A model generated the notes under the pieces. That model worked only from the letters and a program-made list of their open reading frames with translations, had not been told where the DNA came from and did no database searches. Positions 24,820 through 27,549 of a stretch of DNA of 64,000 nt are shown here, piece by piece. Position 1 is the first letter of the stretch. Each line of letters starts with the position of its first letter. The position numbers and the translations under genes were made by a program. The stretch is from Escherichia coli (GTDB taxonomy: Bacteria > Pseudomonadota > Gammaproteobacteria > Enterobacterales > Enterobacteriaceae). The stretch lies in NCBI RefSeq assembly GCF_024223415.1, contig NZ_CP100500.1; one strand, given 5' to 3'.

Positions 24820-27354
24820 TTAATTACTACCAAACATATCCTTAATCCAACCGGCTACACCGTCGCTGTCTTTCTGCTCTTGCTGAGCAGGTTGCTGTTG
24901 CGGCTGTTGCTGCGGCTGAGAAGACTGATCAAACGGATTGCCTGACGGCTGCTGCTGCATCTCACTCTGCTGGCACAGCGATTGCGGATCGCTGGTCCAG
25001 ACCGGCAAGACACGCATGCCACCGCTGCAAACAAAGTTGCCGTCGTAGTCCACGCCCATATCTGCAATATCTTCTGGCGGAACAAGATTCAGCGGCGTTG
25101 GCGTCTGGTTAGCCAGATAACGCTGATAAATCGACATTGCCCCGCTGGCTCCATACAGTTTGGTCGGCTGGTTGTTATCACGGCCGACCCAGGTGATGGT
25201 CACCGTGCTGCCGTCAATGCCCGCAAACCAGGTATCTACGTTATTGTTGGTAGTCCCTGTTTTCCCTGCCAGATGCAGGTTCGGGTATTTCGCCCCAAGC
25301 TGACGACCCGTACCACGTTGTACCACCTGCTGCATGGTCCATAGTGTCAGATACGCCGCCTGCGCCGGAACAGCGCGTTCCGCCTGCGGGAAGCTCTGAT
25401 ACAGCACTTTGCCATCTTCCGCGATTACCGAACGCAGCGCAGAAAGCGGTGCACGGTTACCACCGCTGGCGATGGTCTGGAATGCCTGCGCCACTTCGAT
25501 TGGCGTTAAGTTCAACGCCCCCAGCAGCATTGCCGGAACCGGATGCAACTGATCTTTCGGTACGCCCAGTTTAATCCAGGTATCCGTAACCGCAGGCAGC
25601 CCCAGCGCCATCCCCAGATTTACCGTCGGCACGTTCATCGAACGGGTCAACGCATCCACCAGCATCACTCTGCCGCTTTCGCTATAACGACGGTCATCGT
25701 TCTGCGGTGACCAGACCTGGCCATTCGGCTGACGTAGCGCGATTGGCGCATCCGCAATCCACGTATTCAGACGATAGATTTTCGGCTGGCTTAAAGCCGT
25801 CAGATAAGTCGCTGGTTTTGCAAGGGAACCAATCGAACGCCGCGCCTGCATCGCACGGTTGTAGCCCGCAAACTGCGGCTCAGAACCTCCGACCATCGCA
25901 CGAACTTCACCACTAAAGCGGTCGACGACCACAATCGCGGTTTCCAGATCGCTCAGCTTACGCTGTTTCTTAAGTGCCGGAATGCCTTCCACGGCGGCTT
26001 TTTCTGCCGCGTCCTGGGCCACCGAGTCAAAGGTAGTGAAGATCTTCACGCCGGAGAGATCTTTTACCTTATCGCCTAATTTAGCCTGAAGCTCCTGACG
26101 CACCAGTTGCATAAAGGCTGGCTGAGGAGAGATCACCCCACCGCGCGGCTGAACACCCAGCGGACGCGCACTCAACATGTCATAGAGTTCTTGATCAATA
26201 ATCTGTTGCTGTTGCAGCAGACGCAGTACCAGATTACGTCGCTCCAGCGCCAGTTTCGGGTTACGCCACGGGTTGTAGATGGACGCTCCTTTCACCATAC
26301 CGACTAACAGCGCCTGCTGATCGAGGCTCAATTCTTCTACCGGGCGACCAAAGTAATACAAGCTCGCCAGCGGGAAGCCGCGGATTTCGTTGTCGCCACT
26401 CTGACCGAGATACACCTCGTTCATATACAGCTCAAGAATACGGTCTTTGCTGTAACGCGCGTCCATGATCAGCGCCATGTAAGCTTCGTTCGCTTTACGC
26501 CAGTAAGAGCGCTCGCTGGAGAGGAACAGGTTTTTCACCAGCTGTTGCGTCAGCGTACTCGCCCCCTGCACCGTGCGTCCGGCTGTCAGGTTTGCCAGCA
26601 CCGCACGTCCGATGGAGTAGAGACTGATTCCATCATGCTCGTAGAAATGGCGGTCTTCTGTCGCCAGCAAAGTATCCACCAGCAAATCCGGGAAACCACT
26701 GCGCGGCACAAACAAACGCTGCTCACCGTTTGGTGAGGAGATCATGGTGATCAGACGCGGATCAAGACGGAAGAAACCGAACTGACGGTTGTTCTCCATA
26801 TTGACGATGGTCGCCAGATGATCGCCATCAAAGGTCAGACGCGCACGCACCTGCCCTTCTTTGCTGTCCGGGAAATCAAACGGACGGCGGATCATCTCAA
26901 TGCTGTTAGCCTGCACAGTAAATTCGCCAGGACGGGTCATTTTCGACACCTGACGATACTGTGTTGCCTCCAGCAGCTTCACCATTTCGTTCTTGCTGAT
27001 GGTCATGTCTGGCTCAAGGTTGACCATTCGGCCATAAACTGCCGCAGGCAGTTGCCAGACCTTGCCATCAATACGGCTGCGAATTTTTTGATCGAGATAA
27101 ACGCCGTAAATGGCGATCAGCACGGCAAAAACGATAGCCAGTTTTAACAGCAGCCATAGCCAGCCGCGTTTGCCACGAGCCTTACGCCCTTTGCCTTTGC
27201 CCTTACCTTTGCGCGGCATCGGTTCTTCATCCTCATAGTCATCATAATCGTCGTAATCATCGTCATCTTCGTAACGACGACGGCTTACCTTTTGTTTGAC
27301 CGGACGCGTCGGTTTCCCTTTGCGTCCAATTGGCTCGCGGTCATTCCCGGCCAT
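24820..27354 (-). CDS. mrcB: penicillin-binding protein 1B (bifunctional glycosyltransferase / transpeptidase)
   Basis: Track ORF 24820..27369; start placed at [21 protein letters not shown]... (844 aa); acidic [15 protein letters not shown] and basic [10 protein letters not shown] tracts, TM helix, GT51 and transpeptidase domains, Q-rich C-terminus. Confidence 0.96.
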
Positions 27355-27451
27355 GCTTTTTCTCCGCAATATTCAGGCGCAAAAGCCCGATTTTCTGTTC
27401 TTCTGTTGCAAGACAGAAGAAGATATCTCTCAAAATTTGAGCTCGATCGGT

Positions 27452-27540
27452 CCTCTCTCCCTTAAGGGAGAGGGTTAGGGTGAGGGTGAACGTGCGCGCT
27501 GATGCCCTCACCCCGGCCCTCTCCCACAGGGAGAGGGAGA
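27452..27540. repeat. compound palindromic intergenic repeat between mrcB and hrpB
   Basis: Two palindromes, cctctccc-ttaa-gggagagg and ccctctccc-aca-gggagaggg, flank an inverted pair gggtgagggtgaa / gccctcacccc. Confidence 0.6.
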
Positions 27541-27549
27541 AAACCAACC

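Follow-up and report, generated by a model that had tools for sequence, protein, structure and literature searches.

An inverted pair of BoxC repeat units downstream of hrpB in Escherichia coli

The window described here is a stretch of 64,000 nt from Escherichia coli (contig NZ_CP100500.1, assembly GCF_024223415.1), numbered from its first nucleotide. The block of interest, a segment of dense dyad symmetry at 27452–27540, is located in the intergenic region between the stop codon of hrpB (27550) and the ATG of mrcB (27354), the gene for PBP1b. An earlier sequence-only reading had placed this block between divergent starts of the two genes. The ORF list and the K-12 annotation show otherwise: both genes are on the minus strand, and in K-12 they follow each other in one direction (hrpB at 162105–164534, then mrcB at 164730–167264). 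This tandem arrangement puts the element 3' of the hrpB stop, not between two promoters. The element starts 5 nt beyond the hrpB stop codon and is ~2.5 kb from the hrpB promoter. The annotation should thus read as a BoxC/TMECO pair 3' of hrpB, rather than as an operator between divergent promoters. Two small ORFs that run across the element (68 and 69 aa) were set aside, the element being missing in many strains; such ORFs arise because the G/C-rich repeat sequence is free of stop codons. The features of the region are collected in Table 1.

Table 1. Positions of features in the hrpB–mrcB region of the window, with the basis for each assignment.
Feature	Position	Strand	Basis
hrpB CDS, stop codon TAA at 27552–27550	27550–30024	−	ORF list, K-12 annotation, C-terminus translation
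mrcB (PBP1b) CDS, ATG at 27354	24820–27354	−	ORF list, K-12 annotation
Conserved mrcB upstream block, outside the repeat	27355–27436	−	Present in strains and genera without the element
Whole composite: inverted BoxC/TMECO pair plus conserved end flanks	27438–27548		phnD–phnE copy, size difference to the empty allele, shared B-end flank
A-end flank of the repeat unit, GCTCGATCGGTC	27441–27452	+	Also in the phnD–phnE copy
Type A unit (TTA loop), CTCTCTCCC-TTAA-GGGAGAGGG-TTA-GGGTGAGGG; TMECO 2	27453–27486	+	Regular expression against the published consensus, 1 mismatch
Spacer between units, 18 nt, TGAACGTGCGCGCTGATG	27487–27504		Kept in phnD–phnE, E69 and Lelliottia copies
Type B unit (CCG loop), CCCTCTCCC-TGT-GGGAGAGGG-CCG-GGGTGAGGG; TMECO 1, HPGQ 5	27505–27537	−	Exact regular-expression match
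B-end flank of the repeat unit, AGAAAAC	27538–27544	+	Also in phnD–phnE, alx–sstT, E69 and Enterobacter copies

The dyad symmetry of the block was confirmed, and all three symmetry elements described previously were found, allowing for small transcription slips (the segment quoted as cctctccc is CCTCTCTCCC). The block contains a perfect 9+9 palindrome, CTCTCCCTT/AAGGGAGAG, at 27455–27472; two 21-nt arms that are 86% complementary (GGGAGAGGGTTAGGGTGAGGG, 27466–27486, with CCCTCACCCCGGCCCTCTCCC, 27505–27525); and the hairpin CCCTCTCCC-ACA-GGGAGAGGG at 27517–27537. These symmetries belong to one type A and one type B repeat unit, which are arranged convergently (type A on the plus strand, type B on the minus strand), an arrangement shared by four of the five pairs in K-12. 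Each unit has four G3 runs joined by 3-nt loops, along with a C block complementary to them.

The repeat extends beyond these two units. In strain 5283, the entire composite recurs between phnD and phnE; this copy is 92.6% identical to positions 27438–27544 of the window and includes both end flanks, (T)GTGCTCGATCGGTC and AGAAAAC, as well as the spacer. Since flanks and spacer recur in this copy, the element is ~105–110 bp in length and comprises more than two 34-nt motifs. The B-end flank, in the form AGAAAACMAA, is also found in copies from other genera. The A-end flanks of other K-12 pairs are similar to GCTCGATCGGTC (e.g. gctcagacagtc and actcggtcagtc), and their B-end flanks are likewise degenerate versions of the one seen here.

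The 195-nt hrpB–mrcB spacer of the window is 100% identical to that of strain AR_0085 and 97.9% identical to that of K-12, and only 9 of 5,435 records share at least 99% identity with it. Four positions set it apart from the common E. coli allele (27408, 27440, 27454 and 27464). The T at 27454 is the sole consensus mismatch of the type A unit, where K-12 has a C and matches exactly; it creates a G-T mismatch that weakens the C block of this unit. The type A loop is TTAA in the window and TTGA in K-12.

The block consists of two BoxC units in inverted orientation, one of type A and one of type B, at a locus that has already been catalogued. BoxC repeats are dispersed through the chromosomes of Enterobacteriaceae, in intergenic positions. 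The consensus of the family, formerly called BoxC and later PIT, is CCCTCNCCC-N3-6-GGGNGAGGG-N3-GGGNGAGGG (Holder 2015, PMC4666352). In the same work, 23 TMECO units were catalogued in K-12, with type A facing type B in all five pairs (Holder 2015, PMC4666352). The pair between hrpB and mrcB appears there as TMECO 1 (type B, MG1655 164547–164580, plus strand) and TMECO 2 (type A, 164631–164597, minus strand; Holder 2015 Table 1, PMC4666352), with hrpB (b0148) and mrcB (b0149) as the flanking genes (Holder 2015 supplement, PMC4666352). The same units are HPGQ 5 and 6 of a second catalogue, in which the groups HPG1 and HPG2 were named (Kaplan 2016, PMC5100583). An older survey gave BoxC as a 56-bp repeat with 32 copies. 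Four names have been given to the family since the 1990s, and two published catalogues include this very locus. The sequence-only reading had recognized a small dispersed repeat family, as opposed to a locus-specific operator, and left its name open; the repeat nature stands, and the name is BoxC (PIT, TMECO, HPGQ).

The genomic searches agree with this identification. Over the whole window, a regular expression for the consensus picks out two units and no more, type B exactly and type A with 1 mismatch, and on the K-12 loci that were fetched it finds 15 units in eight loci, recovering all five published pairs. The search for further genomic copies that had been suggested was also productive: among E. 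coli genomes, 10,637 places in 5,425 genomes match the 195-nt spacer query, and BoxC copies are also found in Enterobacter, Leclercia, Lelliottia and Phytobacter. In its consensus, intergenic site, copy number, inverted pairing of A with B and residual-hairpin deletion, the block is like the catalogued BoxC members. It differs from them only at the strain level (the T at 27454 and the TTAA loop). The spacer within this pair is 18 nt, compared to 28–29 nt in three other K-12 BoxC pairs.

The block is able to form a long stem-loop or cruciform, as had been proposed, and it folds far below shuffled sequences as either RNA or DNA. A 110-nt stretch folded as RNA gives −68.4 kcal/mol on the minus strand (z = −6.8) and −63.7 kcal/mol on the plus strand (z = −5.9), and in neither case was any of 200 shuffles as stable; the 107-nt unit folded as DNA gives −30 kcal/mol (z = −4.4). 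The pattern GGGNGAGGGNNNGGGNGAGGG has two exact matches in the 64 kb, both in the block. The notion that the symmetry is an accident of a G+C-rich spacer is refuted by these results: no shuffle folds equally well, pattern matches expected by chance amount to 0.00–0.01 (0.01 for GGGNGAGGGNNNGGGNGAGGG over the 64 kb), and homologous copies number thousands. An Rfam scan of 27000–28000 (E ≤ 1) assigned no family and returned sub-threshold generic hairpins, with scores of 15–27 bits against gathering scores of 37–105.

Among known repeats, REP/BIME elements are similar to BoxC in many respects. Both are short, GC-rich, imperfectly palindromic and intergenic, often form inverted pairs 3' of genes, are polymorphic between strains, and use the same slots (hrpB–mrcB in Salmonella and Citrobacter, phnD–phnE in K-12). 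The REP consensus, GCCGGATG...CTTATCCGGCCTAC, has a GTAG end. The element, however, has neither this consensus nor a GTAG end, and a search with CTTATCCGGCCTAC allowing up to 3 mismatches gave no match in 27355–27549 but did match elsewhere in the window, for example at 53380–53442. The asymmetry between a purine and a pyrimidine strand is specific to BoxC and is not a trait of REPs; this asymmetry confers the potential for triplex and G-quadruplex formation. We know of no RAYT-type transposase for BoxC.

The composite also resembles MITEs such as ERIC/IRU, Correia/NEMIS and RUP in its length of ~105 bp, inverted ends, presence or absence by strain, RNA fold, and a second locus with a copy at 92.6% identity. 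It shares inverted ends with MITEs but not a target-site duplication, and to our knowledge there is no cognate IS for BoxC. Searches for a transposase, a target-site duplication or any other transposition signature of the element found none. A link to mobile DNA was rejected, as the element is rare on plasmids (matches in 89 of 72,556 records, in genera including Klebsiella and Citrobacter) and has only two, weak phage matches. Several of the best-matching plasmid records, 0.4–4.9 Mb in size, were taken to be mislabelled pieces of chromosome. Finally, a GC-rich stem-loop right after a stop codon is reminiscent of a Rho-independent terminator; in contrast to such terminators, the stem of the element is not followed by a U tract, and a scan of 27250–27700 for promoter and terminator consensus sequences found neither.

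On the other side of the element, ~82 nt upstream of mrcB are conserved across all genera, whether a repeat is present or not. RpoD holoenzyme binds in vitro within the hrpB–mrcB spacer (Shimada 2014, PMC3946193), and a mrcB promoter, TTGAGA-17-TGTAAC, has been predicted computationally (Shimada 2014, PMC3946193). The literature searched offered only this predicted promoter, and neither a mapped start of mrcB transcription nor an account of a structure in its leader. In the window, the predicted −35 is at 27433–27428 and the predicted −10 at 27410–27405. The end of the element (27438) is 4 nt upstream of the predicted −35 TTGAGA, and the element abuts the predicted core promoter region of mrcB without overlapping it. 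The claim that the block overlaps the promoter regions of both genes thus fails at both ends: the conserved block upstream of mrcB is not overlapped, and the hrpB promoter is far removed.

A separate structural feature was observed inside this conserved upstream block. A 9-bp hairpin at 27421–27398 on the minus strand (sense strand CUUCUUCUGUC...ACAGAAGAA) has four inner pairs that covary across 75 enterobacterial sequences (69 distinct). In the alignment, 96.8% of cells are paired, and changes on both sides of the stem occur in 73 cells, compared to 16.8 ± 6.7 in shuffled and 2–41 in slid controls. The many U-G pairs on the mrcB sense strand point to an RNA structure on that strand. The hairpin conflicts with the predicted promoter, since the spacer and −10 of that promoter would fall inside it; the predicted −10 hexamer is not conserved outside Escherichia. 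No Rfam family matches the hairpin, and the literature searched does not describe it.

To define the alleles of the locus, spacer queries were compared to 5,426 complete E. coli genomes, requiring at least 80% query coverage. The 195-nt spacer of the full allele is found in 3,265 of these genomes, while the 131-nt spacer of O111:H8, which captures both the full and the hairpin-only alleles, is found in 3,506. From these two counts, ~240 genomes are hairpin-only and ~1,900 are empty. The strain comparison that had been suggested thus finds the site filled in some genomes and empty in others. The empty allele, carried by ST131 and ST95 among others, has a 93-nt spacer without the element, a size difference of 102 bp from the filled allele. 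The pair is therefore dispensable in nature.

The hairpin-only allele, seen in O111:H8 and in Escherichia sp. E1V33, has lost exactly 64 bp between direct repeats and has kept CCCTCTCCC-ACA-GGGAGAGGG. An identical 64-bp deletion is found at phnD–phnE in SCU-313, and a mirror-image deletion is found in an oppositely oriented copy (SCPM-O-B-8794 compared to E69). The internal direct repeats GGGAGAGGG and CCCTCTCCC are 64 bp apart and flank a palindrome, a configuration that would make the element prone to deletion by replication slippage. Such a deletion product of direct repeats around a palindrome was described previously as the 'palindrome effect' (Holder 2015, PMC4666352). Slippage would be expected to collapse the pair into a single 9-bp hairpin and might eventually remove the element.

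The junctions between filled and empty alleles are not those of a clean insertion. Where the empty allele has the 11 nt AGACCAAAGCA, the filled allele has GGTTG and the unit, and its hrpB stop codon is TAA instead of TGA. Neither a target-site duplication nor a clean insertion junction was found at the filled-versus-empty junctions. The 11 nt of the empty allele, located between the hrpB stop and the mrcB core, resemble the B-end flank and its junction, AGAAAAC(C/A)AA. Judging from this resemblance, what now looks empty may be what is left of an older copy that had the E69 orientation, rather than a site never occupied.

The same slot was compared between species with a scan for the HrpB C-terminus, which returned 80 loci and allowed the slot to be classed in 74 species. 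A full BoxC unit occupies it in 19 species, the BoxC hairpin only in 5, a REP-like element in 14, other sequence in 24, and ≤25 nt in 11; one further locus is without the core motif. REP elements fill the slot in Salmonella and in many Citrobacter. The empty 93-nt spacer is found in E. albertii, E. whittamii and Escherichia sp. MOD1-EC7003. 'E. coli' E69 and Lelliottia sp. V86_10 have a full A+B pair that is reversed relative to hrpB and mrcB, and about 20 species of Enterobacter, Leclercia, Lelliottia and Phytobacter have a lone type B unit oriented as in E69. Recombination between the arms was rejected as the origin of the E69 and Lelliottia orientation because the end flanks are also flipped, which indicates either an inversion of the whole element or an independent insertion at the same slot of ~10 bp. 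Thus, the slot has been occupied repeatedly and in both orientations, and one specific type of deletion recurs.

Some further arrangements were noted in the Enterobacter/Phytobacter group. The type B unit is often followed by a terminator-like hairpin and a T run (e.g. AAAGACTTTCCTGTCAGGAAAGTCTTGCTGTTTATTTT). In Phytobacter diazotrophicus, a module of ~95 bp consisting of the type B unit and this hairpin is repeated three times in tandem.

A similar exchange of occupants is seen between phnD and phnE, where the slot holds a BoxC A+B pair, its 64-bp-deleted hairpin-only form or a BIME, depending on the strain. K-12 has a BIME of two inverted REPs where other strains have the BoxC pair. A query with the phnD–phnE BoxC pair is covered to at least 80% in ~1,338 genomes, a count that includes the hairpin-only derivative (90% coverage). 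REP/BIMEs and BoxC composites take each other's place in slots close to stop codons, at hrpB–mrcB across genera and at phnD–phnE across E. coli strains. A reading that we regard as rather unlikely ascribes this exchange to a shared insertion route or to selection for keeping some stable 3' hairpin in such slots. A shared route might involve a HUH/RAYT-like enzyme that recognises hairpins, or else template switching at stalled forks. On either account, the A+B composite of ~105 bp would be a discrete unit, mobile or under selection, rather than debris.

Taken together, we consider it probable, at roughly 70%, that the pair is a dispensable, structure-forming dispersed BoxC repeat that decays by replication slippage. 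It is likely to have no locus-specific regulatory job and may persist as a selfish or neutral repeat. Its position directly after the hrpB stop means that it would be copied into any hrpB transcripts that extend past the stop, and such transcripts could fold it into a hairpin of ~100 nt. Published tests of PIT elements are consistent with an inert repeat: the elements acted neither as promoters nor as terminators and left RNA polymerase unaffected. Some observations do not fit neutrality easily. A hairpin-forming repeat of some kind is present in the slot of most surveyed species, and the deletion derivatives always keep a perfect hairpin. Both slot filling and hairpin retention could result from selection for a 3' hairpin. 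In addition, the units are nearly identical across genera while their flanks have diverged, which is not what neutral drift at a single site would produce and requires recent spread, concerted evolution or selection.

These observations lead to the main rival, which we consider unlikely: the pair might function as an RNA hairpin in the manner of REP/BIMEs. Transcribed at the hrpB 3' end, or between hrpB and mrcB if the two are co-transcribed, a stem-loop of ~100 nt would either block 3'–5' exonucleases or act on read-through into the structured leader of mrcB, by insulation or attenuation. The extreme stability of the fold on the transcribed (minus) strand and the start of the element just past the stop codon are as this model predicts. 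So is the use of the slot by REPs in Salmonella and Citrobacter and by BoxC in Enterobacter, Leclercia, Lelliottia and Phytobacter, where a terminator-like hairpin often follows, and so is the swap of REP and BoxC at phnD–phnE. The orientation flip between lineages fits a function that is independent of orientation, and the near identity of units across genera and the perfect GC-rich hairpin left in deletion alleles are also in its favor. However, the slot is empty in ~35% of E. coli genomes, in E. albertii and in E. whittamii; 11 of the 74 species have nothing in it (≤25 nt); and the published tests of PIT elements argue against terminator activity or an effect on RNA polymerase. As for hairpin retention, it is the expected product of direct-repeat slippage, so that selection is not needed to account for it.

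Two other functions would act through DNA instead. In one, which we regard as quite improbable, a triplex, G-quadruplex or cruciform would stall polymerases or shift supercoiling beside the mrcB promoter, resulting in regulation or programmed local hypermutability. The G3 runs and C block of each unit are suited to such structures, and only 4 nt separate the end of the element from the predicted mrcB −35. In vitro, oligonucleotides of types A and B form a stable intrastrand triplex by CD and NMR and stop polymerase in primer extension, and a G-quadruplex-to-hairpin transition was observed by CD (Kaplan 2016, PMC5100583). The flanks of TMECO loci are also more variable than control loci among 56 strains, according to published data; gain and loss of the repeat would explain this local variability equally well. 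On the other hand, double-stranded TMECO gave duplex signals only, DMS protection was not seen in vivo, stable triplexes or G-quadruplexes have not been detected there, and earlier functional tests saw no in vivo effects. PBP1b is a major peptidoglycan synthase, and despite its importance a third of the strains do without the element. A palindromic operator for a regulator of mrcB and/or hrpB, raised and then set aside by the sequence-only reading, is very unlikely. Dyad symmetry close to the mrcB upstream region and the binding of RpoD holoenzyme somewhere in the spacer in vitro would suit it. Yet the same sequence lies beside unrelated genes (phnD–phnE, fepB–entC, alx–sstT, ilvC–ppiC and xynR–argF), is missing from ~35% of strains, has the reverse orientation in other lineages, and is at the opposite end of hrpB from its promoter. 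A published scan also matched no known transcription-factor motif (Kaplan 2016, PMC5100583).

Next to the PBP1b gene, the locus occurs naturally in three allelic forms (full, hairpin-only and empty), and so offers a convenient natural experiment on whether such repeats influence the expression of neighboring genes or local deletion rates.

No further BoxC copies were found within the 64-kb window, the only related sequence being a degenerate hairpin at ~8574–8601. This lone GC-rich, BoxC-like hairpin (CCCCTCTCCCCTTCGGGCTGAGGGG) lies between two convergent ORFs (8160–8546 on the plus strand and 8635–9810 on the minus strand) and may be either a decayed BoxC remnant or a terminator stem. At 53380–53442, inverted REP-like ends are present, CTTATCCAGCCTAC on the plus strand and CTTATCAGGCCTAC on the minus strand, and this segment is probably a BIME.
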